64,000 bases of DNA from positions 22,145 through 86,144 of IMG/VR virus record IMGVR_UViG_3300046055_000032. One strand, given 5' to 3'. Shown here piece after piece: positions 25,512 through 59,863 of the stretch (positions are counted from its first letter, which is position 1; each line of letters starts with the position of its first letter). The position numbers and the translations under genes are program-made. Under the pieces are notes generated by a model that saw only the letters and a program-made list of their open reading frames with translations, was not told the DNA's origin and ran no database searches. This DNA is from a virus. Its lineage: Duplodnaviria; Heunggongvirae; Uroviricota; Caudoviricetes.

Positions 25512-26774
25512 TCAGTCCGCGCTACGCTGCTTGCCGTGGACGTTGTACCGCGTAAAGTACGATTGCTCGCACGTCAAGTACAGCGCCCGCGTATCGAACT
25601 GTCCGCGGATGACCGGGTTATCCACGTCAACGTACAGCGTCGGGAAGCCCACCTTCATGTGCGCGTGGCGCTGGTCGATGAGGTAGGTGTGGGTCAGTCC
25701 CGTGCCGCCGTTCTCGCCGTCGTCGTCGAAGTCGTTCGTCCCGTTCGACGCCAGCTTCTTGTCGGCAACGATCGGCCGATCCTGGTAGGCGCGGATCGTG
25801 AAGGTGATGTCGCGCCCGGGGTGCGTGGCGGTGGTGCTGAGCCCGTCCATGTCCAGCTTCGCCTGCACGCTCGTCAGGTCGTACCGGCCCTGGCTTTGCA
25901 GCTCGCGATAGAACGCGCGCCGCGTGTCACGGCCCGTCAGGAAGACTTGAGCCGTCGGGTCCGCGCCGTTGTCCTCCGTGTCGTCGATGATGGTATCCCA
26001 TCCGTCGAGCTGCCACGTAAGGTTCTGGTTGTAGTTGTTCTTCGATCCGTCGGGGCGCGCCACGACGCTATCGAACGTGGTAGCGCTGCGATCAACGTCG
26101 CCCTCGTACGGGTCGTAGTGACCGTTATCGTTCGAGGACGCCAAGTCGTCGTCCTCTTGATCGCTGGCGATGTGGCGATCGATGGTCTCCAGACCCTTCG
26201 CGTTCGAGTTCGCGTCGTTCTTCGCATCGCTCGTCGCGTTGGCGCCGATGTCGTTCGAGTCCGCGTGCGCGGAACGAACCAGCTCTTCGTTGAGCAGCTG
26301 CGAGTGAATGTCCCGCATAACGGCGAGCTTCCACTCCCAGACGTCCAGCCCGTCGTCGTGCTGCGCACGGAACCCGGCGTCGGTCGTCAAGTTGAACGGC
26401 GAATGCAGGAACCCCGGGATGCTATCCAGCTCGGTCGGGCTCGTATCAATGTTGCTGGCGACCGTGCCTTGCGTCGAGCCGCTGGCCGTGTCAGCGTCCG
26501 GGTCGGCGCCGCCGGCGCCCTTCGTGTTCGGGTCGCTGGTCGTGACGCGGAAACCGGACCGCTCCCACGGCTCCTTCTTCAAGATCGCGTGAGCGTTGCT
26601 TTCACGGTTCACCTGGTCGTAAACCAGGGCGCCGTAGGTGACGTTGATGGCGCCACCAAGATTGCTCACGTCACCGGCCTTGAAGAAGTTCTTCGCGAAC
26701 TTGGGGTACGCCTTGTTCTCCAGGCTCCACTCGACGTAGCTGGAGACGTTGTTACCGAGTAGGTCGTTCGACAT
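25512..26774 (-). CDS. major capsid protein (HK97-fold candidate)
   Basis: 420 aa ORF directly downstream of the scaffold and protease genes, in the canonical gene order. Confidence 0.65.
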   Translation of the reverse strand: MSNDLLGNNVSSYVEWSLENKAYPKFAKNFFKAGDVSNLGGAINVTYGALVYDQVNRESNAHAILKKEPWERSGFRVTTSDPNTKGAGGADPDADTASGSTQGTVASNIDTSPTELDSIPGFLHSPFNLTTDAGFRAQHDDGLDVWEWKLAVMRDIHSQLLNEELVRSAHADSNDIGANATSDAKNDANSNAKGLETIDRHIASDQEDDDLASSNDNGHYDPYEGDVDRSATTFDSVVARPDGSKNNYNQNLTWQLDGWDTIIDDTEDNGADPTAQVFLTGRDTRRAFYRELQSQGRYDLTSVQAKLDMDGLSTTATHPGRDITFTIRAYQDRPIVADKKLASNGTNDFDDDGENGGTGLTHTYLIDQRHAHMKVGFPTLYVDVDNPVIRGQFDTRALYLTCEQSYFTRYNVHGKQRSAD

Positions 26775-27637: not shown

Positions 27638-30600
27638 TCATGGAATCATACCTCTCGGCATGGCGTTCCCGGTCAGTTGTTCGTAAACGATCGGGAACGT
27701 GTCCTTGAACTCCAAGTAATCCTGCTCCGGCAACATGGACGCGTCAATGTTCCCGTCCAGGCTATGCTTCATCGCGTCGAACACCCGGTCAGGGTTATCG
27801 AACTCTTGATACATCTTGAAGCAGGCCGAGCATTGCTCGTTCCACTCCTCCTCGAACACTTCGCCGCCCAGCGCCGCGAACGCGAGCATGTGCGCGGCCA
27901 AGCTCGGGTCGTCCGTTTTCGTTAACCGGTGATCCACGCGCCGAGCCTGTGATCGCGGGATCTCGTTCAACGCCCTCACGAACGCGTCACTGTGCACGTG
28001 ACTGACGCCGTGCGCGTCCGCGCTCTTCTGTTGATGTTGACAGATCGCCCACGCACTCTCCTCGTCATGACCCTCGTCGCGCAAACTCTCGACGCACTCG
28101 TGCGCTTCTTTCGGGTTCGCGACGTGCTCGTCAACCGGGACGTCCCCCCCGTCGCCGTCCCGATCGCGCGGAGAGTCAGCGGCTCGCTGCTCGCGCCGCT
28201 GCTTGTCTTGCGCCATCTGTTGATCGAGGCCGTTAAAGATCCCGTCCTTGTCGGCGGCGGAGCCCTCGTGCTCGTTAACGTCGTCCGTTTCGTCGAGCCG
28301 GCGATCCTCGTAATCGTCCTCGTCCTCTTGCTCGAAACGGGTATCGTCGCGATCCTTGCCACGGATCATGCCGAGCGTGCCCTTGTACATGCTCGCGACC
28401 CGCTCGTGACTGGGCTTCTTCGTGAATTGGCGCAGCATGGCGTGACGTTTCGCGCGCCACTCGCTCGCGGCGTGAAGCTCGTCGAGCGTCTTGCTCATCG
28501 CCGCAACGTCCCCGTCGTCTCGGTGCTCGCAGTCCTCGGGGCAACCGTCTTCGTGCCGCGGGCACGCCCCGTACTCCTCGCTGTCCTCGTCCTCGTCGTC
28601 TTTGGCGAGGACGTCATCCAGCTGGTTCTCGTACTCCTTCATCGCGAACCCTCGCGGGCGTGTCCCGGCCGTGTCGTCGTCATCGTTCGCGGAGTCCTCC
28701 GTACGGTCACTGCCCGCCGGGTAAAGATAATCCTCGACGTCACCGAGCTGCGGCTTCTGCGACGACGCGTCAGCGCGCGCCACGTGCGCCGACGACGCCG
28801 CGGTCGGGCGCGCCGGATAATCCAACGGGAACCCCCGGAACGAGCCGCTGTCGTCGCTGCCACGATTCTGCCCGTACGTGGGCCGCTGACGCATCACTTC
28901 GCTGCCGAGCGACTTCATCTTGTGCTCACCGGTATCGCGGAAGTACCTGTCACCGCTCGGGTGAGCCAACTCGCGCGCGAGCGCGTTACGGTATCCCGGA
29001 AGGGTGTTCATGTCTTTTCTGTCAAGGACTCGCGCATAGTCCGAGGTGCCGCCATAGCCGTGTGACTCGACGGTCTCGATCACGTCCCGCAACGCTTCCG
29101 GCTTGATCTCGAAGATCTCTTCGATCTTCTCGTAATCCGGCTCACGACCAAGCATCTCCCGGACCTCCGGGAATCGGGCTCCGCCACCCTCGCCGCCGGG
29201 ATCGCCCCCATCATGGGGATCGCCCTCGCCGTGAGGCTCGTCACCCCCGCTCTCGGCGCTCTCGTCGTAATAGTAGCCGCCGCGCGGGCCTTGCTGTACG
29301 TCCGCTCCCTCGGGTGCGTCCGAGGGGTCATCGACGTACGTGCGATCCTTAACGAGCGTCTGCAATTCCTTCAGCGTCTTGTCGCGGTGCGCGGCGTGCT
29401 CGTCGTAACTGTCAGCGACGTGCTCGTCGAGGTCACTGATAACGTCAACGGCGCTTTCCAGCCATGCGATGTCGTCGGCGCTGACGTTGCGCTCGAACGC
29501 TCGCATGTACTCTTGAAAGTCATCGAGCGCGTCATGGACGTCCCTGCGTTCCTCGCGGCGCATCGCGTCAACGTGATCTTTGACGAGCGCGTCGTCTCGT
29601 TTCAGTCGCGCGATCGCGAGACCGGCCCGGTCAACGTTACCTTTCTGGAGATCGATGCTGGCCTCGTACAGGTAATCGGCGAGGGAGCCGCACGCGATAG
29701 CGTCCTTGAACGCGATACCGTCCAGGATCGCCGCCTTGCTCGTTTCGTCCTCGATGACGTCGTCGTGGGACCGATGCTCGTCCTCGTCATCGCGTCCCGT
29801 CTCGTCGAGGCGCTCCAGGCGGCGCTTCATCTCCTTGCCCTCCTCTTCTTCTTTCTCGTCGTCGCTGTCCGCTTCCTCGTCAGCGTCCGCTCCGTCCTCG
29901 TCGTTGAGGAGGTCGTCGAGCGCCTTGTCAACGGTCGCGAGCGCGTCCTCGTACTCTTCGACGTCCTCGTCACCGTCCTGCTTGTCCGGTTCCTCGTCGT
30001 CGTCGTTCCAGAAGAAACGATACGACTCTTCGCCGTCGCTGACTCGCATCCCGTTCTCGGTTTTCGCGATGACGTCGAACCCCGCGCCTTGATTCATGCC
30101 GCGATCGCAGATCGTGACGGCGCTGAGGCTAATCTTCTCGATCTCGTTAACGAGCTTGCACGTGAACCCGCTACAGTCCGTCGTTTGTTGGGACTGCACG
30201 GCTTGCCCGCTGATACTGAACGCGCGCAAATCACCTTTCAGGATCTTCTCCGCGATGTCGCGCCCGATCTCGTCGTCCGTGTAAATTTTCCCAACGACGA
30301 ACAGGGCTTCCGTCCCCGGTTCGACGTCCGCGTCCTTGAGCAGATCGAACCGTTGCAGATCACTGGGCGTGACGGCGCGGACCTCGGTCTTGTAAACCGT
30401 GCCGTCCTTCGCCTCCCACGATTCGAGGATCTCGCCCGGAATGATGTCCGTGTGCTGCAACGAGAACCGGGCGCGCTTCAAGAGTTGCGGGAGCGCCGCC
30501 CGGAGCGCGTCGCCTTTGATGAGGTCGTTTTCGTCGTCAACGACGGCCACCGACGCGGGACCGTAAATCGTGACGCCGTCGCGCGCCTTGAACACGCGCA

Positions 30601-31018
30601 TCTCGTTCCGCGGACTCGGACGCCGCGCCGCTTTTCGCGCTCGATTGATGGGGTTGCTGTCCTCGGGCTCCGCCGCGTCCTCGGGCTCGTTCGAGTCCTG
30701 GCAAGAGCAATCCGTTCCGCGGCCGCAGCCACAATCCTTCGCCGTCGCGTCCTCGTCGTCCTCTTCATCGTCTGCGGGAAAGTCACGCTCCTCGTCGTCG
30801 CCGCTGACGACTTGCCGGAAGGAGTCCGGGTCGCCTTTCAGGATGTCGTTCGCGACCGCGTCCGCGAGCTGTTTCGAGAGACCGTTGCTCCGCAGGTCCT
30901 CTCGGATGGTGGCGTACGCGGTATCGTCCCCGAACTCCTCGCGGACGCGCTGCGCCTTACGGAAATAGTGCAGGAACCCCTCGCTCGGGGTCCCGTCAGC
31001 GATTGGAGTGGCCACCAA
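27638..31018 (-). CDS. 1126-aa polyprotein with an HK97-family prohead protease domain (aa ~140-320) and a long acidic scaffold-like extension
   Basis: RVFKARDGVTIYGPASVAVVDDENDLIKGDA...LQHTD...GLRAFSISGQ resembles S78 prohead protease motifs; the remainder is D/E-rich; contains the shared YVDDPSDAPEGADVQQGPRGGYYYDES motif (nt ~29261-29341). Confidence 0.65.
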   Translation of the reverse strand: MVATPIADGTPSEGFLHYFRKAQRVREEFGDDTAYATIREDLRSNGLSKQLADAVANDILKGDPDSFRQVVSGDDEERDFPADDEEDDEDATAKDCGCGRGTDCSCQDSNEPEDAAEPEDSNPINRARKAARRPSPRNEMRVFKARDGVTIYGPASVAVVDDENDLIKGDALRAALPQLLKRARFSLQHTDIIPGEILESWEAKDGTVYKTEVRAVTPSDLQRFDLLKDADVEPGTEALFVVGKIYTDDEIGRDIAEKILKGDLRAFSISGQAVQSQQTTDCSGFTCKLVNEIEKISLSAVTICDRGMNQGAGFDVIAKTENGMRVSDGEESYRFFWNDDDEEPDKQDGDEDVEEYEDALATVDKALDDLLNDEDGADADEEADSDDEKEEEEGKEMKRRLERLDETGRDDEDEHRSHDDVIEDETSKAAILDGIAFKDAIACGSLADYLYEASIDLQKGNVDRAGLAIARLKRDDALVKDHVDAMRREERRDVHDALDDFQEYMRAFERNVSADDIAWLESAVDVISDLDEHVADSYDEHAAHRDKTLKELQTLVKDRTYVDDPSDAPEGADVQQGPRGGYYYDESAESGGDEPHGEGDPHDGGDPGGEGGGARFPEVREMLGREPDYEKIEEIFEIKPEALRDVIETVESHGYGGTSDYARVLDRKDMNTLPGYRNALARELAHPSGDRYFRDTGEHKMKSLGSEVMRQRPTYGQNRGSDDSGSFRGFPLDYPARPTAASSAHVARADASSQKPQLGDVEDYLYPAGSDRTEDSANDDDDTAGTRPRGFAMKEYENQLDDVLAKDDEDEDSEEYGACPRHEDGCPEDCEHRDDGDVAAMSKTLDELHAASEWRAKRHAMLRQFTKKPSHERVASMYKGTLGMIRGKDRDDTRFEQEDEDDYEDRRLDETDDVNEHEGSAADKDGIFNGLDQQMAQDKQRREQRAADSPRDRDGDGGDVPVDEHVANPKEAHECVESLRDEGHDEESAWAICQHQQKSADAHGVSHVHSDAFVRALNEIPRSQARRVDHRLTKTDDPSLAAHMLAFAALGGEVFEEEWNEQCSACFKMYQEFDNPDRVFDAMKHSLDGNIDASMLPEQDYLEFKDTFPIVYEQLTGNAMPRGMIP

Positions 31019-33992: not shown

Positions 33993-34064
33993 CGTCTGGC
34001 ACCTCAAACGCCCATCGCGGGCGCGAATAGTAGTAGGACCTACTTGCTTATTAAATTTTCTAAA
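33993..34064 (-). promoter_or_regulatory. Promoter/5'UTR cassette copy B
   Basis: TTTAGAAAATTTAATAAGCAAGTAGGTCCTACTACTATTCGCGCCCGCGATGGGCGTTTGAGGTGCCAGACG-ATG. Confidence 0.6.
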
Positions 34065-34614
34065 CCTCCTGGGGCGAGTCGGGGGTGCTGACGTCAATCG
34101 CTAAACAATCCGGGAGCGGAAGCGCTTCGCTCCAAACCCCCAACCCCTCACAGGACAGCTCTCCCCTCTCTCGACCCTCCTCGGACTCGGCCGCCGCGAA
34201 CGCGCCCGGCGCCTCCCCGCACTCAAGCACCACATCCGCAACGACCGTGCTGTCAGCGCTCACCACGAGCGTATGCGAACCCTCGCCCAAGCACGGAAGG
34301 GCGCGGGCCTCCCCTATGTCCCAGCCCTCAGCCGCGAACTCGGCGCGATCCATGCCCGCCTCCACGCGCAGCGTCGCGTCCAGCGGCGCATTCTCAGCAC
34401 CAGTCAACGTGACGCGCAACGTGTCGATGGCAAGGTTCTCGTCCATGTCCGCACCGTCGGTGCGAGCGCTCGCGTACGGTGCCGGCTCGTACTCCAGCCA
34501 TTCCGGACCGACGAGAACGGTCGCCGCCAACGCGACGGTCACGGCCATCATCAGCACCACGCCAACGACCGGCGAGACGGCGCGATCCTCAACGGTTCGC
34601 GTATTCGCGATCAT
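34060..34614 (-). CDS. membrane-anchored / secreted protein (184 aa)
   Basis: Internal ATG (MIANTR) with ATGA overlap; N-terminal TM or signal helix VVGVVLMMAVTVALAATVLV; 4 Cys. Confidence 0.5.
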   Translation of the reverse strand: MIANTRTVEDRAVSPVVGVVLMMAVTVALAATVLVGPEWLEYEPAPYASARTDGADMDENLAIDTLRVTLTGAENAPLDATLRVEAGMDRAEFAAEGWDIGEARALPCLGEGSHTLVVSADSTVVADVVLECGEAPGAFAAAESEEGRERGELSCEGLGVWSEALPLPDCLAIDVSTPDSPQEV

Positions 34615-34955
34615 GGTTCGTCCTCCGGGTCGTGCGCGAGGGCCCGATAAGCGTCCCCAGTGTTGCGGGGGATCGAGCCCGTCATGTACTCCAGAAACAC
34701 CGTCAGGCATTCATCGACGTTCGTGTCGTCAGCGTCCCGCGCAGAAACCGACGTGTAGTCGAGGTAAATGCTGTCGGGATCGGTGGGTCGCCACACCTCC
34801 GCGATGATGCCCCGCTCGGCCGTGCGGCGGAACCGGACGCGCCCGCCGGTACCGAACCAGGCCTCGACCGCGGGTTCGCCCTGCTTGCTCGTCCGCGTGA
34901 CGCGGGTCACGGTGAGGCTGCTGTCGGGGGAGTCGTCGCCGGGTTCAGGCATCAT
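34611..34955 (-). CDS. hypothetical (115 aa)
   Basis: Internal start MMPEPGDD overlapping the stop of the 47-aa ORF. Confidence 0.5.
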   Translation of the reverse strand: MMPEPGDDSPDSSLTVTRVTRTSKQGEPAVEAWFGTGGRVRFRRTAERGIIAEVWRPTDPDSIYLDYTSVSARDADDTNVDECLTVFLEYMTGSIPRNTGDAYRALAHDPEDEP

Positions 34956-35422: not shown

Positions 35423-35563
35423 TCACCGCTCCGGCAACGGGACCGGCACGATCACGCCGTCACCGCCGCAATGAACGTGTTTGAACATCACGGCGTGCAG
35501 CGCGCTGGCACAGTACGCGTGATTGCTGCCGGTGATGTCGATCTTGAACGCGACGTCACACAT
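35423..35563 (-). CDS. small Cys/His protein (46 aa)
   Basis: Internal ATG of track ORF 35423..35650; weak. Confidence 0.3.
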   Translation of the reverse strand: MCDVAFKIDITGSNHAYCASALHAVMFKHVHCGGDGVIVPVPLPER

Positions 35564-35786
35564 CGACGTGCTCCGGCCAGTCGTGAACCTGCTTGAGCGA
35601 CAAGAACCGCTCGACGCTGGTCGCGGTCTCGCGGTAAAGCTTGTAATCACTCAAGTCGTACTCCTCCCGGATCTGGCTGGCGGACTCTTGCGCCCGCTGC
35701 GCACCCGCAGGGCTGTCGTCGAAGATCTCCATCTCGACCAGCGTGCGCGGGTTCGCTTCATCACGGAGAGCGACGATCAATGGCAT
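35556..35786 (-). CDS. hypothetical (76 aa)
   Basis: ORF preceded by the degenerate cassette GATTTAATATCCTTAAAG...GAGGTCGCCATCGA-ATG. Confidence 0.45.
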   Translation of the reverse strand: MPLIVALRDEANPRTLVEMEIFDDSPAGAQRAQESASQIREEYDLSDYKLYRETATSVERFLSLKQVHDWPEHVDV

Positions 35787-35832: not shown

Positions 35833-37200
35833 TTACTCGACATAGCCGTATTGCCCGAAGCAGTGACCGTTCTCGCGCACCCGCGGCGGGCACTCCGGTT
35901 TCTCGACGTCAACGCCCCGCTCTCTCTGGAACGCCCACTCACCGAGCTTCTCGGCGTAGTCCAAGTACTGGGGATCGTCGTCGTTGTCGCCCTTGTAGAC
36001 GCCCGCGAAGTCCTGCGCCCACTCCTTGACTTCCTCGACCTGCTCGCTCATCACTTGGATCTCGGCCGGGACGCCATCGACCGTCACGACCACGTGAACG
36101 GCGCGATAGTAACCACCGGCTGGGTCCTCCCGAAACTTGTCGTCCACTTCGCGAACCTCAGCGCCTTCGGCGACGCTCCACTCTTGCAACCGGCGAACGG
36201 TCTGCTCCAGGTCGTCGGACGTGTCCGTGAGGACGCGCATCCCGATGATGTCGTCCATGTGCTCTAACGGATCGTCGTCGTACTCCTCCTTGCGATCCTC
36301 ACGTTTTGTCTTGAGCGACCCGGCATCCTTGAGGCGACCACGGGTCTTGGAACCCGAGAACGCTTCCCTCAAGGATGAGTGAAGGTCGTAGAACGGTTCC
36401 GTGAGTTGACCAACCCACTCGTCGTACTCGTTCTCGCTCGCGCCCATCTCTGGCGCGTCCTGGATGTGCTCCGCCCATGTTCGATCGAACGCGGGCGCGT
36501 GCTCGACCACAGCCTCCCGATCCTCAGCCGCCGCGAGCGCTTTCCGCCGATCGACAAACACCCCACCTTGCGGACCCTCGTGAACGGGAACGCCCTCGGG
36601 CACATCGTCTGGACCCTCCACGTACTGGCGATGATCGGGCGGTGGGAGATCGCCCGGGGTCGTTTGCGTCACGACGATCTCGCCAGTGTTGACGCCAACC
36701 TTCAGGAGCGATGTCTCGATCTCTTCGTTACGCATCGCCTCGAACGAGTTCCCGGTCGCCTGCCGAGCATCATCCAGCGATCCGTAGATGCTTACGTGCG
36801 GGTGATCGAGTTCCTGGTCGAACGCGTCGCGTTTCCAGTCAAGGTAAACGTCGCTCTCCGGGAAGTCAACCGCAACGCCCACGACCTTACCGTCCTCGTC
36901 GATGACCCGATAACAGGAACCATCCCCGAACCAGTTCCCGTCCTCTTGCTTCACGATCACTTCACCCGTCTCGGGATCAATGTCGTGATCCACGACCCTG
37001 TCAAGCGACACAAGCCCGTCCTCCTCGTCTTGTTCTTCGCGCAGCTGCTCCTCGAACTCGGACCCCGGTGCCTCCTCACGCATCCACTGACTTTTCACAG
37101 CGACGCGCTGCTCGACATCGCGTTGCTCGTCCCCGTCGCGTCTCCCCTCATGCAGCCAGTGAGCGTTCCTCTCGCTCTCACGCCAATCGATCGTGATCAT
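35833..37200 (-). CDS. RelA/SpoT-like nucleotidyltransferase (small-alarmone-synthetase/toxSAS-like) domain protein
   Basis: C-terminal SGSKTRGRLKDAGSLKTK...DDIIGMRVLT...GGYYRAVHVVVTVDGVPAEIQVMSEQ..W matches the GRVKs..Si..K / DliGiRii / YrSlHlvv...EiQiRT motifs of the RelA_SpoT synthetase fold; the start is set to the internal ATG that gives an ATGA overlap; carries the shared QYVEGPDDVPEGVPVHEGPQGGVFVD motif. Confidence 0.6.
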   Translation of the reverse strand: MITIDWRESERNAHWLHEGRRDGDEQRDVEQRVAVKSQWMREEAPGSEFEEQLREEQDEEDGLVSLDRVVDHDIDPETGEVIVKQEDGNWFGDGSCYRVIDEDGKVVGVAVDFPESDVYLDWKRDAFDQELDHPHVSIYGSLDDARQATGNSFEAMRNEEIETSLLKVGVNTGEIVVTQTTPGDLPPPDHRQYVEGPDDVPEGVPVHEGPQGGVFVDRRKALAAAEDREAVVEHAPAFDRTWAEHIQDAPEMGASENEYDEWVGQLTEPFYDLHSSLREAFSGSKTRGRLKDAGSLKTKREDRKEEYDDDPLEHMDDIIGMRVLTDTSDDLEQTVRRLQEWSVAEGAEVREVDDKFREDPAGGYYRAVHVVVTVDGVPAEIQVMSEQVEEVKEWAQDFAGVYKGDNDDDPQYLDYAEKLGEWAFQRERGVDVEKPECPPRVRENGHCFGQYGYVE

Positions 37201-39248
37201 ACCGGGACTGCCTCCTGCCATTGCTCGATCGCTTCCTCCCACGCCCGCTGGAACGCTGTCTCGGACGGTTCGTGAACATCGTCCAAACGGTACACGGCCT
37301 CTTCCGGGCTCGCCACGACGTACTCGGCTTCGTCGTCGAAAAGACCCGGGCCCGTCATCCAAGACGTGGCGATGTTCTCCACGGGAACGCGAGCACTCAG
37401 CACCACGTCACCGAAATCTTGCGCGACTTCCGGGTCGGCCGTCCACGATTCGAGCGCGCGATGCTGGACGGCCAGCTGCTCCTCGTTCCCTTCCTCTTTC
37501 GCGCGCCGTAGCTCGTCCGCGATCTCGCCACTGACGCCGCGGTACATTGTGACGGTGTCCGTGTCCGGGTCGTACGTCGGGTCCACGTCACGCACGAACG
37601 CTTGCGTGAACGCGGCCATGCGCGCCATGTGCTCGGCGTCCCGTTGCCCAACGCCAAACGACTCCGAGCGCTTCTGTTCCTCGGCCAGGATGCCGGGATG
37701 CACGAACGAGTTCCCGGTCTTCTGCACCGCCCACGCCCACATCGGTAACGTGGACGGTTCCTCAGGGCTCTGGCCCCAACTGTCCGTCGCGTTAACGGCT
37801 TCCGGGAGCTTCTCCACTAACTGTTCCCCGATCTTACTGTAAAGCGGGCCGGCGTGCAGTTCCTCGAACGTTGATGTCTCACCGATCGTCACTTCGTCAG
37901 CGTTCGTCTTGACCAGGTTCTTGAGATGCGACGACGCGGCCTCGCGGTAATCCGTTTCGTCGAGGCGTTCCCGGATCGCGTCCCAGTCGATGCCGTCCAC
38001 CAGCTTTTCGCCGTACTGTTCCGCGTCCTGGATCGAGACCGTCTCGCTCACGCGGCTCGATTCGTGCGCCGCGTCGCTGGTCTCGACTTGCTCCGACGCG
38101 ACGTCGTGACCCGTCGCGGAAACGTGCCCGCCGAGACCGGACGGCGTCTCGAAACAGTGACCCGGCACGTCACAGTACTCTTCACCCTGCTTGTGGATGC
38201 GCGTCATCTGTAACTCGGCACCGACCGGCGCGTCGAGCAGCTCCGAAACGTACCGTCTCGTTTTCCCGATGCCGTCCGAGTCAACGTCCCGGAGACGATC
38301 CACCCACTCGTTGCGGACAGCGACCGCCTCTTCGTTGTACAGTTGCCAGCGCTCCTCCTGGTCCATGATGTTAACGTTCTCGCGCGTGTAGGTGTCACCG
38401 TCCGGGTCCCCAGCGACGAGCACCTCTGCCTCCTCACCCCCGAACAGTCCCGAGGACAGCCAGGAACCAATAACGCGCTCCACGGGAACGCGCGTCGAGA
38501 TGACGACGCCGTGGTTGTCCTCGGCAAAGTTGCCCGCCACGACAGGGTTGGCCGTCCACGACTCCACTGCCCGATGCGTGACGTCCGCTTCGTCGGTCGA
38601 TGGGCCCACGCCCGAGCGGATGAGTTGGTCAAGCTCTTCCTGAAAGTGCTCCGCGCCCGTGCCGCGGAACACTTCGATGGTGTCGGTGCCCGGGTCGTAG
38701 GTCGGATTCCACTCCCGATGCAACGCTTGGTCCAACGCCGCCGCCTGCTCGAACTGTTCAGCCTGCTCGGGCGACAGGTCGTGCTCCGCCACTTCTTCCT
38801 CCACGTCCGGGTGAAGCTTGTCAACGCCGTACTTCTCGCGCGCCCACGCCCACACCGGGACCGTCGCCTCGCTGTTCGGCCAGCCGCCGAAACGGTTCAG
38901 CGCGTCCGGTGTGACGTCCTCGATCTCCCCGGGCGCTTCGACCAGGCGGAACGGTTCCTCGAACTGTTCGTACTCCTCCATCGTCATGCGGGAGGGATCA
39001 AGGCCGTTCTCCCAGTCGGACAGGGGCGCTTGCTCTAACCGTTCCTGCACAGCGTCACGGTACCCTTCTGCAAGCGTCGCCGGTGATGCGCCTGCGACAC
39101 CTGACGACTCGGCTTCGTCCTCATCAACGCTCCCCTCCGACTCGTAGTACAAGCCACCGCGCGGTCCTTCATGGATCTCGACGCCGTTCGGCGCTTCCGA
39201 AGGATCGTCAATGTAGATGTTCGCTTTCGCAGCGCGCTTCCCCGTCAT
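37197..39248 (-). CDS. protein with two tandem ADP-ribosyltransferase-like (R-S-E) domains
   Basis: Two homologous roughly 170-aa segments, each with FRG/YRG (Arg), ESWTA (S-x-T) and GGEEAEVLV / DDEAEYVV (E-x-E) in the order and spacing of ART toxins; N-terminal shared motif IYIDDPSEAPNGVEIHEGPRGGLYYES. Confidence 0.55.
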   Translation of the reverse strand: MTGKRAAKANIYIDDPSEAPNGVEIHEGPRGGLYYESEGSVDEDEAESSGVAGASPATLAEGYRDAVQERLEQAPLSDWENGLDPSRMTMEEYEQFEEPFRLVEAPGEIEDVTPDALNRFGGWPNSEATVPVWAWAREKYGVDKLHPDVEEEVAEHDLSPEQAEQFEQAAALDQALHREWNPTYDPGTDTIEVFRGTGAEHFQEELDQLIRSGVGPSTDEADVTHRAVESWTANPVVAGNFAEDNHGVVISTRVPVERVIGSWLSSGLFGGEEAEVLVAGDPDGDTYTRENVNIMDQEERWQLYNEEAVAVRNEWVDRLRDVDSDGIGKTRRYVSELLDAPVGAELQMTRIHKQGEEYCDVPGHCFETPSGLGGHVSATGHDVASEQVETSDAAHESSRVSETVSIQDAEQYGEKLVDGIDWDAIRERLDETDYREAASSHLKNLVKTNADEVTIGETSTFEELHAGPLYSKIGEQLVEKLPEAVNATDSWGQSPEEPSTLPMWAWAVQKTGNSFVHPGILAEEQKRSESFGVGQRDAEHMARMAAFTQAFVRDVDPTYDPDTDTVTMYRGVSGEIADELRRAKEEGNEEQLAVQHRALESWTADPEVAQDFGDVVLSARVPVENIATSWMTGPGLFDDEAEYVVASPEEAVYRLDDVHEPSETAFQRAWEEAIEQWQEAVPV

Positions 39249-40180
39249 CGATCCCCGTCACCTCGTTCTTGCTCGGGCTCCACGATACCGGTACGGAAAT
39301 GCCGGTGACGGCACCTGGGATGCGGGAGCGGGAAGTTGTCGTCGCGGACAGGGTCCCACGAGGGGTTCCCCAGGTCCGGGTACTCGGGGTGCTGTCCCGT
39401 GCTGACGTCAATAATGAGTTCTTTCAGTTCCGGTTTCGGGATGCCGCCCTCGCTCTCCTCCATGATGACGCGGCACACGTCGCACGTTTTCTCGTCGTTC
39501 ACGGTCCCGAACTCGTACAAGAAGGAACGGTCCGTGCGCTCCTCCGCTTCATCGTACGCTTCGTCGCGCGCCGTCTGGTACACTTTCCACGTTTCCGTGG
39601 ACGCGATGCGCTCCAACTGGGAACGTACCTCGTGCCCGATCTCTTGTACGAGACGCGAACTGATGCGCCCCGGACTCACGCGCCCGTCACGGTACGCTTC
39701 AAGAATCACTTCCCGGATCGTGCGCGCCTGCTCGTTCGTAAAGGACGCGAACGTGTCCGCTAACGTTTCCTCACTTAACGCTTGCTGGAACGAGCGTTCG
39801 TGCCGTGGCGAGAACGCCATCGAGACGCCCACGCCCGTCGCGACGTCCTGTAGCCCGCGAACGTACGTGTCGCGTAACCGTGACTCCATGATGGACTGCA
39901 TACGGTCCGCGGTCCGTTCCGAAATATTGTTCACGAGCTGGTTCAGTTCGTCCGGTGACGCGTGCCGATGCTGCGGCAACGCCTCCAACTCTTCCCGCAA
40001 GACGCGATCCAGATCCCGCGACAAGCGCTCCTCCGCGACGTCAGCGCCGCTCTGCTTCCGCAACCATCGCGCCGCTTCCTGGTGCTTGCGCAGGAACGCA
40101 TGAAAGTTCGCGAGCCGGTTCTCGGCCGTGCTTTGTCCCAGTTCCAGTACGTGCTGGTTCGCGCGAAAGATCGGGTTCAT
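39245..40180 (-). CDS. phage Mu gpF-like minor head (head morphogenesis) protein
   Basis: C-terminal PLPHPRCRHRH matches the conserved 'hPnCRC' signature of Phage_Mu_F; located just downstream of the portal. Confidence 0.65.
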   Translation of the reverse strand: MNPIFRANQHVLELGQSTAENRLANFHAFLRKHQEAARWLRKQSGADVAEERLSRDLDRVLREELEALPQHRHASPDELNQLVNNISERTADRMQSIMESRLRDTYVRGLQDVATGVGVSMAFSPRHERSFQQALSEETLADTFASFTNEQARTIREVILEAYRDGRVSPGRISSRLVQEIGHEVRSQLERIASTETWKVYQTARDEAYDEAEERTDRSFLYEFGTVNDEKTCDVCRVIMEESEGGIPKPELKELIIDVSTGQHPEYPDLGNPSWDPVRDDNFPLPHPRCRHRHFRTGIVEPEQERGDGDR

Positions 40181-40425
40181 CGATGCGCCTCCCAGTCCGT
40201 GAGCGTCACCATGCGGTGCCAATCACAGTCCTCGTTCGGGCAGATCACGCTCGGCTCAACGTTCCCGTTCGCGCCGATCTCGTGCTCGGGATGAAGGCGC
40301 GCGACGTGTCCGCGCGGACATCGCATCCAGACGGTCCCGCTCGCCGCCAAGTACCAGGTTAACGGGTCGTCGAGGTTCTCGTCGTGCGTTAACGTGCTCG
40401 TCGGGTCCGCGATCCCGGGCGTCAT
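40177..40425 (-). CDS. small Cys/His protein (82 aa)
   Basis: Internal ATG of track ORF 40177..40446; CPRGH...CPNEDCDWH. Confidence 0.4.
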   Translation of the reverse strand: MTPGIADPTSTLTHDENLDDPLTWYLAASGTVWMRCPRGHVARLHPEHEIGANGNVEPSVICPNEDCDWHRMVTLTDWEAHR

Positions 40426-40589
40426 CGGAACGTTTCCTCCCACCACTCTTGCGCGAGCCGTTCCGCGTTCTCGTCACCGTACACGCCGCTTAACAAGCTT
40501 CGCTTCCAGCCCAACATGCAGGAACGACACATAGGCGCCGTCGATCCGTCGACACGCTCTGCTTCTGGTTCCCCGCACCCGCACGTCAT
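40422..40589 (-). CDS. small Zn-ribbon protein (55 aa)
   Basis: Internal ATG (MTCGCGEPEAE...CRSC). Confidence 0.35.
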   Translation of the reverse strand: MTCGCGEPEAERVDGSTAPMCRSCMLGWKRSLLSGVYGDENAERLAQEWWEETFR

Positions 40590-40647: not shown

Positions 40648-42699
40648 TCACCGACCCCCACCTCCTTGGCCGCCGCCGAGACCGCCGCCTTGGCCTTGTG
40701 GCGCGCCGCCAAGACCGCCTTGCCCGCTACCCATGCCGCCGCTGGGGAGGCCTCCCATGCCGCTTGAGCCGCTGCCTTGCCCGCCGGGCGATGCGTCCGG
40801 CACGTCCTCCGGCTCGACCGGGAACTCGAACTCGCCCGTCTCCGGGTTCCGGCCTTTCGGCGGGAAACCGAGCTGCTGCATGGACATCGCGAAGTTCGCG
40901 CGCATCGTTTTCTCCTGCAACTGCTGCATCTCGTCCTCTAACTCGACCGGCGCCAACTGTAACTCCCACTCGTTAACGCTAACGCGCCCCTCACCGTCGC
41001 ACAGACCGCACTGCTCGTTGTCGAAGCCCTCCCATTTGCTGCGCTCCTCGCACTCCGGGCACGGCAACCGGATCAAGTTCAACAACGCCGGAAAGATCTC
41101 TTCGTTATAGATGCACTGTCCCTTCTTCGCGCCGAGTAACGTGACTTGCCATTGCGTGGGGCCCTGGTTCTGGAGACCGACCGCGTCCACGTTCCCGTGA
41201 AACACGGGCGCCACGTCGTACGCGCTCCCGATGCGGCGATAGAACTCGTCGCGGACTTGCTCGAACTGCATCTCCTCCGGCAGCCGCGAGAACTCCATGT
41301 ATTGCGGCATCGCGGAACTGTCACCCGGATCGAAACCGAACTTCGGCACGTAATGACCGTCCTGGCTCACGTTCCGATCCTCCGCGCTTTTCCACATCGC
41401 CTGCACGCTATCCGGGTTCCGCGTCGGGATGAACAACGCGCTGCGCGGCATACGCTCCTCCTCGTAGAACGTCCGCATGAAGCGCTCCATCGAGAGGAGC
41501 GTTTTCGCCATGTCGTAGACGCTCACGAGCGGGGACGTCCCGTACCCGTAACTGGGATCGAACTTCGTAGCGTGCACGACCTCGCCCGGGAAACCGCTCT
41601 CCGGGTCCGGTCCCACGTAATACTCGACGATGTTCTCGCTGCCGCCACCCTGCTGACCGGTCGAGGAGCCGCCCGTACCGGGCTCCACGGCCACCCACCA
41701 TACCTCGTGCAGCTTCCGCCCGCACTGCTCGCACTCGCCCGGTTCCTCGTACACTTTCCCTTGACTCGGAACGTTACCGACGCTCCCCGGCGACGGGTGC
41801 GAGTACGCGTCCTCGTCACCGTCCGCGAACGGTTCGCGCCGCCACTGTTCCGAGCCGTCATCGTAACGGTACGCCTCGTCTGGTCGTGGTCTGTGACGAA
41901 GACAAATCCAGTACCGTCCACCGGGCGTCATGAGGCGCGGATGAACGACTTTCTGGAAATTGCGCGGGTCAGCAACGAACACTTCGCGCGTGATCCAGTC
42001 CTTGATGTGACCGTCCCCGTCAATGTCGTAATCGGCGAGATGAATCATCAAGCCGTCGTCCACGATGTCGAGATGCTTCTCGAAGATGCGGAGCGCCGTC
42101 ATGAAGTCGTGACCGTTCCGATCCACTTTCTCGAAAAAATCCTCGACGGCCGCCACGACGCGCCGATCCGGTTCCGCGAACCAGTCAACGTCCGGCGGGA
42201 AACGTACGCCCTCGTCCGTTTCGACGGGCTTGTCATCGTCGCCAGGCATCGGGCCGCTCGGGTCCTCCGCCTCCCCTCCCCCGGGACCAGCGGGCGCCGA
42301 CTCGCCGCTCACACCGCTTGGAGCAGCGTCCTCGTTCTCGCGCTCGGTCTCGTACTCGTTCGCGTCCAGTGCGGTATGTGCACCGCACTCCCGGCACCAG
42401 TCCGGTTCCTCGTCCACGCCGTACTCTTCACGGCACACTTTACATTTCGCGCCGTACGTTGGCTGCCATTCGTAACCGTTCATCAGGATGGTGTCCCGCA
42501 ACGCTTGAACGCTTTTACGAACGGCATTGTTTTTACGGTACAGTTCGTACAGTTCGTTGATGCCAACCTCACCGAACCCGTCGCGATTCAACGGTCCGGC
42601 ACGGTCGCGCTGCAACGGGCCCGCGCGCCGATCCGGCATCACGCCACGCGACGCGAGCCCGGCCTTGAACAAGCGAGCCGTTCGCGACCAATCAACCAT
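40648..42699 (-). CDS. portal protein with embedded Zn-ribbon inserts and a Gly-rich C-terminal tail
   Basis: 683 aa; lies between the terminase and MuF/protease genes; CKVCREE...CRECGAH, CEQCGRK, CPECEER...CGLCDGEG inserts; C-terminal (GGxG)n. Confidence 0.7.
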   Translation of the reverse strand: MVDWSRTARLFKAGLASRGVMPDRRAGPLQRDRAGPLNRDGFGEVGINELYELYRKNNAVRKSVQALRDTILMNGYEWQPTYGAKCKVCREEYGVDEEPDWCRECGAHTALDANEYETERENEDAAPSGVSGESAPAGPGGGEAEDPSGPMPGDDDKPVETDEGVRFPPDVDWFAEPDRRVVAAVEDFFEKVDRNGHDFMTALRIFEKHLDIVDDGLMIHLADYDIDGDGHIKDWITREVFVADPRNFQKVVHPRLMTPGGRYWICLRHRPRPDEAYRYDDGSEQWRREPFADGDEDAYSHPSPGSVGNVPSQGKVYEEPGECEQCGRKLHEVWWVAVEPGTGGSSTGQQGGGSENIVEYYVGPDPESGFPGEVVHATKFDPSYGYGTSPLVSVYDMAKTLLSMERFMRTFYEEERMPRSALFIPTRNPDSVQAMWKSAEDRNVSQDGHYVPKFGFDPGDSSAMPQYMEFSRLPEEMQFEQVRDEFYRRIGSAYDVAPVFHGNVDAVGLQNQGPTQWQVTLLGAKKGQCIYNEEIFPALLNLIRLPCPECEERSKWEGFDNEQCGLCDGEGRVSVNEWELQLAPVELEDEMQQLQEKTMRANFAMSMQQLGFPPKGRNPETGEFEFPVEPEDVPDASPGGQGSGSSGMGGLPSGGMGSGQGGLGGAPQGQGGGLGGGQGGGGR

Positions 42700-46472: not shown

Positions 46473-47966
46473 TTACACCACCAAATCCAAGTCCGCGTTG
46501 TCGATCGCGCTCACACTGGGACCCGTCGCGAGGCTCATCGCGCCGTAACGTAGCGCGTCCATCGTGTGATCGTCCTTGTCCTGCGGCGTTTCCTTCGCCG
46601 GCTCGTCCTCGCCCGTTTCGGGGTAATGGTACCGGCGGATTTCGCGCTGCACGTTCTCGCACCGTTGCGCTACCATCAATCGCGGCAACCCGTCGTCTTG
46701 GATCGTTAACCGGCTCGTAACTTCCTGGATGCCCGGCATGATCTCGTTGTTCGCGCCCTCGCTCGGGAACCCGATGCGCGCCATTTTCTCGATCTCGTCC
46801 GGCTCGGACGGGTCACATACCATCGTGCCGTTACCGTGTTTGGCGACCCAGTTCTCTCGCACCCAGCGCCCCATCTCGGCGGCGAGCGTTTGCGTTCGAT
46901 AGTACTCGTCCGCGATGATCATGCGGCCGTCACCGTCCACGAGGCACAGCAAACACACGATCGGGTTCTGGTACCCCCAATCCACGAAGTAGCGTATGTC
47001 CTCCGGCCGGAAGCGGCGGTCGTTCGTGTGATCAACCCACGCGCCGTACTCGTCGTCGTACGAGAGATCGATGACGTGCGTATCGACCGAGAACCCCGGG
47101 TACACGAGACCTTCCAACTGCACGAACTCGCCGTGGATCTCTTGCGCCGCGAACTCGGAATCGCCGTACGTTCGTCGCAAGCTGCGAAGGTACTCGTCAC
47201 TCAACCACGGATTGTCCGTCGCACTCACGCGCACCCAATCGTACCCGTCCGTGGCGTCCTCGCTCGCGAACCGCTCGAACAGCCAATTGTGCCCGTTCGG
47301 GGTCGTCGTCACGACGCCACCTTGCGGGTAACCGACTTGCCGCAAACGCCCCACGATCACGTTCCAAGCGTCCGCGCTCGCGAACGCTGCCTCGTCCACG
47401 TGAAAGAACGCTGCGTCGATGCCGCGAAACGCGTCGTCGGGGTTCGTCGTCGTACGGAAATACACGTCACTGCCGTTCGTGAGGACGGTGTGTTTTTCGC
47501 CCTTGTTTCTACTGTGTAGCGCGAGCGGGTGCAGCACGTTAAAGAACGCCGGGATCGTGCTGGACATCAACTGCTTGTAACTGTTCGCGGCCACGATCGC
47601 CGTCAATCCCGGATGCTCGATCAACCACTTCACCGTCTCCGCGCAGCCCGTCAACGTTTTCCCGGACCCCAAACCGCCAACGAACGCCGCGAAACGGATG
47701 TCTTGTTCATCGTCCCGGACGCCATCACACAGCGCGTGAAACGCTTGCTGTTTCTCGTGCGGGTTCTCGTCATGCCAGGGATCGTAACCTTTCCCCTCCA
47801 ACGCATGATGCCAATGCCAACGATAGTTGCTCGCAACTAACCCAGCACGCACCAATTCTGCCTCGCTCGCACTCGACGAAACATGCTTCGGCTCACGCCG
47901 AACTGTATCCGGGAACTCCTCACGGAGCGACGTCCGCATCACTGTCAACTCCCTCGAAACGAGCAA
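46473..47966 (-). CDS. terL: terminase large subunit
   Basis: 497 aa; Walker A GLGSGKTLTG; ATPase plus C-terminal nuclease-like acidic residues; adjacent small subunit candidate. Confidence 0.8.
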   Translation of the reverse strand: MLVSRELTVMRTSLREEFPDTVRREPKHVSSSASEAELVRAGLVASNYRWHWHHALEGKGYDPWHDENPHEKQQAFHALCDGVRDDEQDIRFAAFVGGLGSGKTLTGCAETVKWLIEHPGLTAIVAANSYKQLMSSTIPAFFNVLHPLALHSRNKGEKHTVLTNGSDVYFRTTTNPDDAFRGIDAAFFHVDEAAFASADAWNVIVGRLRQVGYPQGGVVTTTPNGHNWLFERFASEDATDGYDWVRVSATDNPWLSDEYLRSLRRTYGDSEFAAQEIHGEFVQLEGLVYPGFSVDTHVIDLSYDDEYGAWVDHTNDRRFRPEDIRYFVDWGYQNPIVCLLCLVDGDGRMIIADEYYRTQTLAAEMGRWVRENWVAKHGNGTMVCDPSEPDEIEKMARIGFPSEGANNEIMPGIQEVTSRLTIQDDGLPRLMVAQRCENVQREIRRYHYPETGEDEPAKETPQDKDDHTMDALRYGAMSLATGPSVSAIDNADLDLVV

Positions 47967-58858: not shown

Positions 58859-59863
58859 TTATTTCGTCTCGTTGGATGCCTGCACCGGCGCTCCCGGCTC
58901 GGGCTGATCCAGTTCGTGCTGCGCTTGCAGATGCAAACGCAACGCGTCGTGCGTCCCGAACCCGGCATCGCAGAGCGGGCACGACGAGACGTCCTCGGGT
59001 GTCGCACCGGGCTCGTTCGAGCCCGGGCAATCCTCCCCCGTCGCCGGGTCCTCGTGAACGGCGGGCGCCGCGTCGCCTCCCCCCGCCCAGCAGAGCGACC
59101 CGCAGCGTTGGCACCGCACGTTCTCCGACAACTCCGGGTGCGCGCCGCTGCCATCGCAGGGATAGTCACCCGTTTTGCGGTTCTTGTGCTTGTACAGGAC
59201 CGGTCGATGTTCTCGCGTATGGAACGACGCCTCGCACACCGGGCACTTCGCCGTGCTTTCCCGCTCCGCCCGGATCTCGTCCTGCGTCTTGTTCTGCACT
59301 TCGGGACGGTCCGGGCAACGGTGCCGCTGATGCGTCGTGAGTGCCGTACGCCATGTCGTCTCGTAACCGCAACCGTGACGGCAACAGGTCGGTTCATCGA
59401 ACGTGTTCGATTTCACGTTCTCCATCGCGTCCCGGTCCGGTCCGTCCTCGGAACGGCTCTGGTCCGATACCGCCGGGTGATCCTCCGGGTCCTGGTCATA
59501 GTACTCTAAGAGAGCCCACCGTACTTGCTCCGAGATGGTGGTACCCTCCAACAGTTTGACTTGATGCAAGAGATGGTGCAGCGAGCCGGGGAGGTGGACT
59601 TTGACGTTTTGCGTACCGCCGAACGATGACGCTAACTCGTCGTCGTCCGTGCCCCTGTCGTTCTCGATGTTCACGAGCCCTCCTCCGCACCGCAGCACGT
59701 TGGACAGTACCAGCGAGATCCTTGACGCGCTTGCCCCACGTGCGTCGATGCCCCGCAACCGAGCGTTGCGCACTCCTTCGCGTGAACAGCTCTCTTCTGA
59801 CTCATGGGATAACGCCCCGCAAAGCGTCGAACGCTTCGACCCCGATCGCCGTCGCGAAACCAA
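58859..59863 (-). CDS. C2H2-type zinc-finger protein (334 aa)
   Basis: CPVCEASFHTREH..., CPLCDAGFGTHDALRLHLQAQH. Confidence 0.45.
   Translation of the reverse strand: MVSRRRSGSKRSTLCGALSHESEESCSREGVRNARLRGIDARGASASRISLVLSNVLRCGGGLVNIENDRGTDDDELASSFGGTQNVKVHLPGSLHHLLHQVKLLEGTTISEQVRWALLEYYDQDPEDHPAVSDQSRSEDGPDRDAMENVKSNTFDEPTCCRHGCGYETTWRTALTTHQRHRCPDRPEVQNKTQDEIRAERESTAKCPVCEASFHTREHRPVLYKHKNRKTGDYPCDGSGAHPELSENVRCQRCGSLCWAGGGDAAPAVHEDPATGEDCPGSNEPGATPEDVSSCPLCDAGFGTHDALRLHLQAQHELDQPEPGAPVQASNETK

Follow-up and report, generated by a model that had tools for sequence, protein, structure and literature searches.

What are an ADP-ribosyltransferase (ART) and a RelA/SpoT-type nucleotidyltransferase doing among the head genes of a virus that appears to infect haloarchaea? 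The question is raised by positions 35,833 to 40,180 of a 64,000-nucleotide stretch (hereafter the window) of the uncultivated virus IMGVR_UViG_3300046055_000032, covering positions 22,145 to 86,144 of that IMG/VR record. Three genes follow one another there on the minus strand, on which all window features given below are located. The first encodes a MuF / SPP1 gp7-like head morphogenesis protein of 311 amino acids (aa) starting from the ATG at 40180 (39245..40180), the second a 683-aa protein with two ART domains (37197..39248), and the third a 455-aa RelA_SpoT protein (35833..37200); the gene calls of the source contig agree. An initial annotation had read the last two as candidate effectors that are packaged into capsids and injected to reprogram the host. 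The computational analysis presented here makes this explanation probable. Both enzymes carry a virus-only motif that is common to the prohead protease, and they would be loaded in the capsid and injected with the same outcome for the host. Packaging and injection are independently supported by the occurrence of this motif in the prohead protease and in other head-module effector proteins.

The motif consists of 26 aa, K.R.Y[IV]DDPSEAPEG..VQEGP.GG.YYE, and is predicted to form beta strands. In the six-frame translation of the window, it is found at exactly three sites, all of them in frame and in head-module proteins. The first copy lies near the start of the ART protein (residues 12-35, YIDDPSEAPNGVEIHEGPRGGLYY, 39144..39215, 56.0 bits), the second directly before the catalytic domain of the RelA protein (residues 193-216, YVEGPDDVPEGVPVHEGPQGGVFV, 36553..36624, 37.9 bits), and the third in the prohead protease protein (residues 561-584, YVDDPSDAPEGADVQQGPRGGYYY, 29267..29338, 55.9 bits). 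The hidden Markov model (HMM) behind these scores was built solely from 238 copies in proteins from outside the window. Its best score in 30 shuffled windows was 10.7 bits, and chance occurrence was rejected, as the three sites reach 38-56 bits. A possible degenerate copy (residues 329-347, KTRRYVSELLDAPVGAELQ, 38208..38264) falls in the stretch separating the two ART domains, the expected place of a module boundary. It is proposed by position only, its 7.7 bits being within the shuffle range and not significant alone.

An exhaustive profile search of 1.84 billion cluster representatives recovered 438 metagenomic motif proteins at E <= 1e-3, including 93 at E <= 1e-10. These proteins have one to five copies each, about half of them with a copy no more than 60 residues from the N-terminus, and their median content of aspartate plus glutamate is 24.5%. 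Pfam domains were counted in the top 147. Effector-type domains, the kind classically packaged in heads, comprise DRAT-like ART (6), RelA_SpoT (6), GNAT (5), ADPrib_exo_Tox (3), Zeta_toxin (3), S-adenosylmethionine (S-AdoMet) lyase (2), metallopeptidase (2), topoisomerase IB (1), and a poly(A)-polymerase-type nucleotidyltransferase (1). Head-assembly domains are represented by the prohead protease S78 (5, plus 3 of the XkdF type), Phage_Mu_F (2), and portal (1), while DUF192, whose function is unknown, is present on five proteins. Motif-bearing relatives of 1000-2000 aa combine several modules; the ART protein of the window is made of two copies of one domain.

Cultured haloarchaeal viruses possess the motif as well. 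A tblastn search with the protease copy matched gp115 of HVTV-1 and gp114 of HCTV-5 (E 1e-5 to 2e-6). In HVTV-1, the motif is situated at the N-terminus of gp115 and twice in gp116, and in HCTV-5 at the N-terminus of gp114 and twice at its C-terminus. A degenerate DNA pattern capturing ~37% of the motif copies gave 0 matches when 185,579 species were searched with a single genome apiece (596 Gb of cellular sequence). The same pattern matched 29 stretches in IMG/VR, one site in the window (copy 3), and none in 100 shuffles. The motif is thus regarded as a virus-specific mark of head-module proteins.

Some further features of the motif proteins are worth recording. Several are lysine-rich and not acidic around the motif, e.g., KVYIKNPSEAPKGVKVQEGKRGGHYYES (examples are P0006, P0030, P0031, P0035, P0040, P0045-P0047, P0051, P0056, and P0060), which indicates that the motif is also present in viruses from non-hypersaline habitats. 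Metalloproteases may be another type of cargo, since a motif-tagged protein of L004 (3-950, protein L4_a), encoded just upstream of the ART-like P0004, has a HEIGH zincin metalloprotease signature, and Peptidase_Mx and an anthrax-lethal-factor-like family are also represented among the motif proteins. One member of P0061-P0153 matches Rubrerythrin and EncFtn-like, which are typical of encapsulin cargo; a simple pattern search did not pinpoint the protein. With a ferritin-like motif protein, the likeness to the loading of encapsulin cargo would be striking. Finally, the protease protein and the MuF-adjacent P0002 have a second short element in common, C-V-x-x-L-x-x-x-G-H-x-E-E-x-A-x-A-I-C, with 48% identity over 25 aa. 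It lies close to the C-terminus in the former (residues 975-996, 28031-28096) and close to the N-terminus in the latter (residues 38-62).

The two tandem R-S-E ART copies proposed initially were recovered in the double ART protein. Domain 1 (residues ~107-314, 38307..38930) contains R195, S230-W-T232, and E273-A-E275 in the strings VFRG, ESWT, and EAE, and domain 2 (residues ~466-683, 37200..37853) contains R570, S601-W-T603, and E640-A-E642 in MYRG, ESWT, and EAE. The copies are paralogous (blastp E 3e-31, 33% identity over ~310 aa). Copy 2 matches DRAT PF07357, a family of arginine-specific R-S-E ARTs, above the cut-off (40.5 bits, cut-off 25, E 2.3e-10), and domain 1 matches the family HMM at E 4e-93. 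In an alignment of four copies, i.e., both from the window and those of two metagenomic relatives, the Arg of [FY]RG, E-S-W-[TS], and the second Glu of [EQ]-A-E are invariant. The clade is found in at least 20 motif-bearing proteins, several times in tandem, and the catalytic residues recur there. The spacing of R195-S230-E273 and of R570-S601-E640 is typical of R-S-E ARTs such as C3 and iota toxin, and E-x-E is the signature of arginine-specific ARTs, to which T4 Alt belongs. Judging from these residues, both copies look catalytically competent, and the E-x-E suggests arginine as the acceptor.

In the AlphaFold model, the ART protein is predicted to have the split beta-sandwich fold. Among predicted viral structures, it matches MuF-fusion or polyvalent phage proteins, a protein of an uncultured archaeal virus, and a protein of HCTV-1. 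Searches of PDB sequences gave nothing, whether the query was the ART protein or the ART profile; by sequence, the protein is thus not a close relative of C3 or iota toxin. As for Pfam, the ART assignment came through DRAT and not through ADPrib_exo_Tox, the family named at the outset. An orthologue of DraT, the dinitrogenase reductase ADP-ribosyltransferase, was considered and rejected, as the match covers only positions 163-247 of the 256 in the DRAT profile, i.e., its last third, and reflects an ART of the same clade. Close relatives are few: a word-indexed homologue search with the ART protein returned only itself and P0004, the ART-domain alignment returned only the copy in L002, and scans of IMG/VR with the ART and RelA proteins yielded zero relatives. 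In L002, a 91%-identical relative, the two ART domains are encoded by separate genes with an ATGA-type overlap (2-487 and 484-1152), which indicates that the fusion is recent and the unit modular. Between the ART domains of the window protein, residues 358-381 (38106-38177) read YCDVPGHCFETPSGLGGHVSATGH, with the pattern C-x5-H-C...H...H. This segment resembles a small Cys/His metal-binding knuckle and follows the degenerate half-copy of the motif.

The RelA protein has its RelA_SpoT nucleotidyltransferase (pyrophosphokinase) domain at residues ~288-403 (35992..36339), and the match to PF04607 is well above the cut-off (43.5 bits, cut-off 27, E 4.4e-11). The domain includes the strings TRGRLKDAGSLKTK (286-299), DDIIGMRVLT (316-325), GYYRAVHVVVT (363-373), and AEIQV (379-383). 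A conserved N-terminal domain (residues 97-151, 36748..36912) matches phrog_28612 (E 1.4e-7) and is 55% identical to P0002, which is encoded beside a MuF gene in L005. The start of the gene had been placed at the TTG at 37362, but it is most likely the ATG at 37200, which overlaps the ART stop codon and gives the 455-aa product. A word-indexed search with the RelA protein found one 91% relative and one relative of the N-terminal domain. The motif search gave six more proteins of the same architecture, composed of a variable N-terminus, the motif, ~25 aa, and the RelA_SpoT domain. In the alignment of this divergent seven-member family, R289, K291, S295, K299, D317, Y365-R-A-x-H369, and E380-x-Q382 are invariant. 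Aligned to Rel_Seq and RelQ/RelP, these positions correspond to the ATP-binding Arg/Lys, the Mg-binding Asp, the base-stacking Y-R-x-x-H, and the catalytic Glu. The synthetase motifs used for comparison were R-x-K...S...K (syn1), Asp (syn2), Y-x-S-x-H (syn3), and E-x-Q-x-R (syn4).

A PDB search with the single RelA sequence was weak (E ~0.01). The family profile matched 2be3 (E 1e-17), 3l9d (5e-17), YjbM (2e-14), RelP (3e-13), and FaRel2 (5e-4), and reached only E 0.015 or weaker with the long RelA/SpoT-homologue enzymes. The structures of Tas1, CapRel, and Apk2 are absent among the 26 PDB matches listed for this profile. By these comparisons, the domain is nearest to the RelQ/RelP small alarmone synthetases (2be3, 3l9d, 5ded, 6ewz), with which it shares the same catalytic residues, and the synthetase-fold domain recognized in the initial annotation holds at the profile level. 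The RelQ/RelP enzymes are single-domain proteins, whereas the window protein adds an N-terminal domain and the motif. The two also differ in setting, the enzyme described here being viral and its host without guanosine tetra- and pentaphosphate, (p)ppGpp. Indeed, no (p)ppGpp could be detected in Haloferax volcanii, and archaea seldom have RelA/SpoT homologues (PMC8646023).

A mechanism can be proposed from these features. The motif would dock the ART and RelA proteins inside the assembling procapsid or mark sites there for trimming by the prohead protease. The virion would then carry a few copies of each enzyme, which would enter the cell with the DNA, like T4 Alt, P1 Dar, and the MuF-fused toxins. 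Once injected, the ART domains would modify host proteins by ADP-ribosylation of arginine residues, while the RelA_SpoT enzyme would use ATP to pyrophosphorylate a purine nucleotide at its 3'-OH. Because the host makes no (p)ppGpp, the effect would be direct metabolic or translational poisoning, depletion or takeover, and not a hijack of the stringent response. In a broader and more tentative form, which is given somewhat less than an even chance, the motif would be a portable capsid-loading tag of archaeal tailed viruses, like an encapsulin cargo peptide or the T4 capsid targeting sequence. The tagged enzymes, including a small alarmone synthetase, would then be delivered with the genome into hosts lacking (p)ppGpp.

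Several points weigh against this explanation. The presence of the ART and RelA proteins in the virion is putative, and injecting an enzyme that consumes ATP or GTP looks hazardous when the virus depends on translation by the host. The head protease of HVTV-1 lacks the motif, which is hence not a universal protease feature. The AlphaFold model of the RelA protein is poor, with a predicted local distance difference test score (pLDDT) of 44.9. Nearly all of its best 25 Foldseek matches are SpoT, SAS1, and RelP proteins, but with E ~1e-3 and low TM-scores they give weak corroboration. Thus, of the two folds expected initially, the models recovered that of the ART and supported that of the RelA domain only weakly. 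In addition, two synthetase motifs depart from their counterparts in (p)ppGpp synthetases: syn3 has A-x-H instead of S-x-H, and syn4 has EIQVM (EIQ[IV]K in relatives) instead of EIQIR.

Because of these two deviations, the product of the RelA enzyme is uncertain. Since the family profile best matches RelQ/RelP-type synthetases, a guanosine-nucleotide pyrophosphokinase is favoured. On sequence similarity, (p)ppGpp is estimated to be the most likely product, at a little under an even chance. (p)ppApp would come next, clearly behind, followed by two unlikely and equally weighted options, namely, modification of the tRNA 3' end or another acceptor, and an inactive protein or one with another activity. 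Caution is advised by the study of Apk2, in which sequence alone gave no prediction of specificity and motif swaps left the nucleotide specificity unswitched (PMC12226406).

The closest known arrangement is found in the Druskaviridae (HVTV-1, HCTV-1, and HCTV-5). In HCTV-5, gp109 is annotated as an ADP-ribosyltransferase (ADPrib_exo_Tox) and immediately precedes the gpF-like gene; a BNR 'sialidase' and the giant gp114, a 'zeta toxin and ParB nuclease', are also annotated. In HVTV-1, gp115 has Zeta_toxin and a C-terminal ADPrib_exo_Tox domain. The effector-type proteins of both viruses are placed between portal/MuF and the head protease, the motif-tagged zeta-toxin, ART, and ParB proteins being located between MuF and the protease. 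According to a review, the role of such halovirus toxins is unknown (PMC4284463). These viruses have homologous portal, MuF, and prohead protease proteins, and the same motif at the N- and C-termini of their effectors. They differ from the window virus in several respects. The match of their ARTs is to ADPrib_exo_Tox rather than to the DRAT-like clade, no RelA_SpoT homologue is found in any record of the phage collection, and the shared genes are only 26-42% identical, without nucleotide similarity. In view of the HCTV-5 and HVTV-1 annotations, ART genes beside MuF in a halovirus head module were already in GenBank. The ART half of the combination that had been regarded as new in a haloarchaeal virus is therefore less new, while for the RelA_SpoT half, no precedent was found in an archaeal virus.

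The RelA_SpoT gene recurs in a similar setting in metagenomic relatives. In three other lineages, a motif-RelA_SpoT gene lies just after the portal gene and beside ART-like and MuF proteins. The order in L010 is terminase, portal, DUF192-motif-RelA_SpoT, an 80-aa open reading frame (ORF), and large motif proteins. Behind the RelA_SpoT gene, L011-L013 (10 contigs) encode an 81-aa ORF, a protein of 833 aa containing an ART of the window clade, and a DUF192-motif-MuF fusion, in this order; in L014, what follows is a 79-aa ORF, a protein of 1002 aa in which the motif occurs twice, and MuF. From these gene orders, the trio of RelA_SpoT, ART, and MuF recurs in divergent lineages. The ~80-aa ORFs (L010 11392-11634, L011 10754-10999, L014 1535-1774, L009 1503-1628) are 45-49% identical to one another. 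In the window, an acidic 76-aa ORF (35556..35786) stands directly downstream of the RelA gene. It is 97% conserved in L002 but has no Pfam match and no detectable homology to the ~80-aa ORFs of the other lineages. The small acidic ORF after the motif-RelA_SpoT gene (76-81 aa) may encode an inhibitor or immunity protein. For the window ORF, a candidate by position only, the label of immunity protein was withheld due to the missing homology.

This small ORF contributes to the alternative that survives best, although it is considered unlikely. The enzymes could be made late and act only in the infected cell, without ever being packaged, e.g., in metabolic shut-off, in blocking superinfection, or in fighting co-infecting viruses or defence. 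The motif would then be an interaction or regulatory module unrelated to capsids. The position in a late operon indeed shows only the timing of synthesis, and each lineage has a small conserved ORF behind the RelA gene, in the place that an inhibitor would take in a toxin-immunity pair. Nevertheless, the motif is also carried by the prohead protease, MuF, and portal proteins, whose site of action is the procapsid interior. Furthermore, the motif proteins of HCTV-5 and HVTV-1 are likewise encoded between MuF and the protease, and in bacteria, counterparts having these domains are packaged (PMC9503650, PMC5512222). Packaging and injection thus remain the preferred explanation.

Slightly less probable still is the proposal that the enzymes are packaged via MuF or the portal and that the motif is not a docking signal but a recognition or cleavage site of the prohead protease, or a spacer in polyvalent proteins. 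The motif stands ahead of each enzyme module, and long multi-domain proteins contain as many as five repeats of it. A possible degenerate copy lies between the ART domains, which are distinct genes in L002, and processing into units is known for polyvalent proteins (PMC5512222). However, a cleavage site of 26 well-conserved residues, with beta strands predicted in it, would be long. Many small single-domain proteins have one N-terminal copy and nothing to separate, and cleavage itself is putative.

Among bacterial systems, the fusion of MuF to ART or to RelA_SpoT (Apk2, a (p)ppApp synthetase) and the packaging of such proteins in the head are established (PMC12226406, PMC9503650, PMC5512222), and the MuF polymorphic toxins of temperate phages have been described by Jamet et al. 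2017 (PMC5576092). As in these toxins and Apk2, MuF, ART, and RelA_SpoT belong here to the head-morphogenesis module, and a small gene follows the RelA_SpoT gene. In contrast, they are encoded here by separate genes and not as C-terminal extensions of MuF, the 26-aa motif is outside Pfam, the host is archaeal, and there is no sign of lysogeny. Moreover, the RelA domain is nearer to RelQ/RelP than to the toxic small alarmone synthetases (toxSAS) in the PDB, FaRel2 matching at E 5e-4. A MuF-fusion polymorphic toxin was rejected, as MuF, ART-ART, and RelA_SpoT are three ORFs with stop codons and ATGA overlaps. A toxin-immunity 'moron' of a temperate virus, serving lysogen competition, addiction, or abortive infection, would agree with the small ORF after the RelA gene and with the ties of Apk2 and the MuF toxins to temperate phages and to immunity genes placed after them (PMC12226406), but it is very improbable here, given that the enzymes are not fused to MuF, that the motif DNA pattern (~37% of copies) is unmatched in the genomes of 185,579 species, which argues against proviruses, that others likewise found no Druskaviridae proviruses (PMC8651126), that the scanned ORFs include no integrase match, and that the 76-aa ORF has neither a Pfam match nor detectable homology to the small ORF of other lineages.

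A further likeness is to T4 Alt and the T4 internal proteins and to P1 Dar, injected proteins that modify the host or counteract restriction and that are encoded among the head genes and loaded into the procapsid via a short targeting element with a link to the prohead protease (PMC9503650, PMC5512222). The motif has no sequence relation to the T4 capsid targeting sequence or to DarA. In contrast to the targeting element, it is longer and in places internal or repeated, and its role in loading is putative.

The three genes belong to a long run of minus-strand genes that includes the head genes of this haloarchaeal-type tailed virus, with a GC content of ~63%. The terminase large subunit (46473-47966) stands ahead of the late head operon, in which portal, a small ORF, MuF, ART-ART, and RelA_SpoT succeed one another. 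The upstream end of the head module is the 683-aa portal (40648..42699; phrog_18178, E 1.3e-26). The Pfam Phage_portal match is below the threshold, and in tblastn against the phage collection, the portal matched only Druskaviridae portals (26-27% identity, E 7e-22). An 89-aa ORF without family match lies between portal and MuF (40177-40446); its Cys/His pairs, CPRGH...CPNEDCDWH, suggest a zinc ribbon. The longest ORF of MuF begins at the TTG at 40222 (325 aa), but the ATG at 40180, implied earlier, agrees with the 311-aa gene call. The PLPHPRCRHRH signature, noted initially, was located at residues 298-308 and includes the HPxCR motif. The Pfam Phage_Mu_F match is sub-threshold (23.0 bits, cut-off 29.6); PHROG head-morphogenesis families match at E 8e-9, and blastp found the gpF-like protein of HCTV-5 (E 2e-11) and gp114 of HVTV-1 (E 1.5e-10). 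With its position downstream of the portal, the product of 39245..40180 is accordingly assigned, from these matches, as a MuF / SPP1 gp7 head morphogenesis protein.

ATGA overlaps join the MuF stop to the ART start and the ART stop to the RelA start, which indicates translational coupling of the three genes. They are separate genes between portal and prohead protease, as the initial annotation had placed them in the head module. Several small ORFs are found between the 76-aa ORF and the protease gene, one of them with an archaeal pilin N-terminus. In this ORF (34060-34710), Pilin_N, the signal domain of archaeal type IV pilins, scores 33 bits (cut-off 25.2); the ORF is conserved in the relatives L001 and L002 and is unexpected in a head module. 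Behind the small ORFs comes the 1126-aa prohead (S78-type) protease fusion protein (27638..31018; phrog_23555, E 9e-38), which is 41.5% identical to the head maturation protease of HVTV-1. Next in line are a 269-aa ORF and what is probably the major capsid gene (25512-26774).

The locus gave zero nucleotide matches among 50,697 phage records. Within this collection, nucleotide and protein searches with the locus and with the ART and RelA proteins found nothing, and the only matches came from portal, terminase, and the short motif. MuF and protease are also nearest to Druskaviridae haloarchaeal siphoviruses among cultured viruses, and the locus proteins are highly acidic (18-25% aspartate plus glutamate). 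A haloarchaeal host is supported by the Druskaviridae as the only cultured relatives, by these acidic proteins, and by the nearby archaeal pilin signal domain. The data therefore support a tailed virus of haloarchaea that would be distantly related to Druskaviridae, in agreement with the host assumed initially. No tRNA gene was found. Elsewhere in the window, an SPFH/Band 7 protein (59992-60876, E 1e-27), an AAA_25 RecA/DnaB-like ATPase (62519-63721, E 3e-23), and an ORF with weak Rad50 zinc-hook and C2H2 zinc-finger matches (58859-59863) are encoded.

In the literature, no paper was found linking RelA/SpoT to archaeal viruses, and Iyer et al. noted a particular scarcity of polyvalent effector proteins in archaea (PMC5512222). 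The theme itself is known in bacteria; what is new, as far as found, is the shared motif together with the RelA_SpoT effector family. The analysis points to haloarchaeal tailed viruses as owners of a rich modular effector repertoire, which is built around a short virus-only motif rather than MuF fusion. The locus offers a handle on motif-driven capsid loading, on the targets of ADP-ribosylation in archaea, and on the action of RelA/SpoT enzymes in cells without (p)ppGpp. If the motif is indeed a loading tag, it could be used for packaging foreign proteins into the capsids of archaeal viruses, and viruses would be using a 'bacterial' alarmone as a weapon against archaea.

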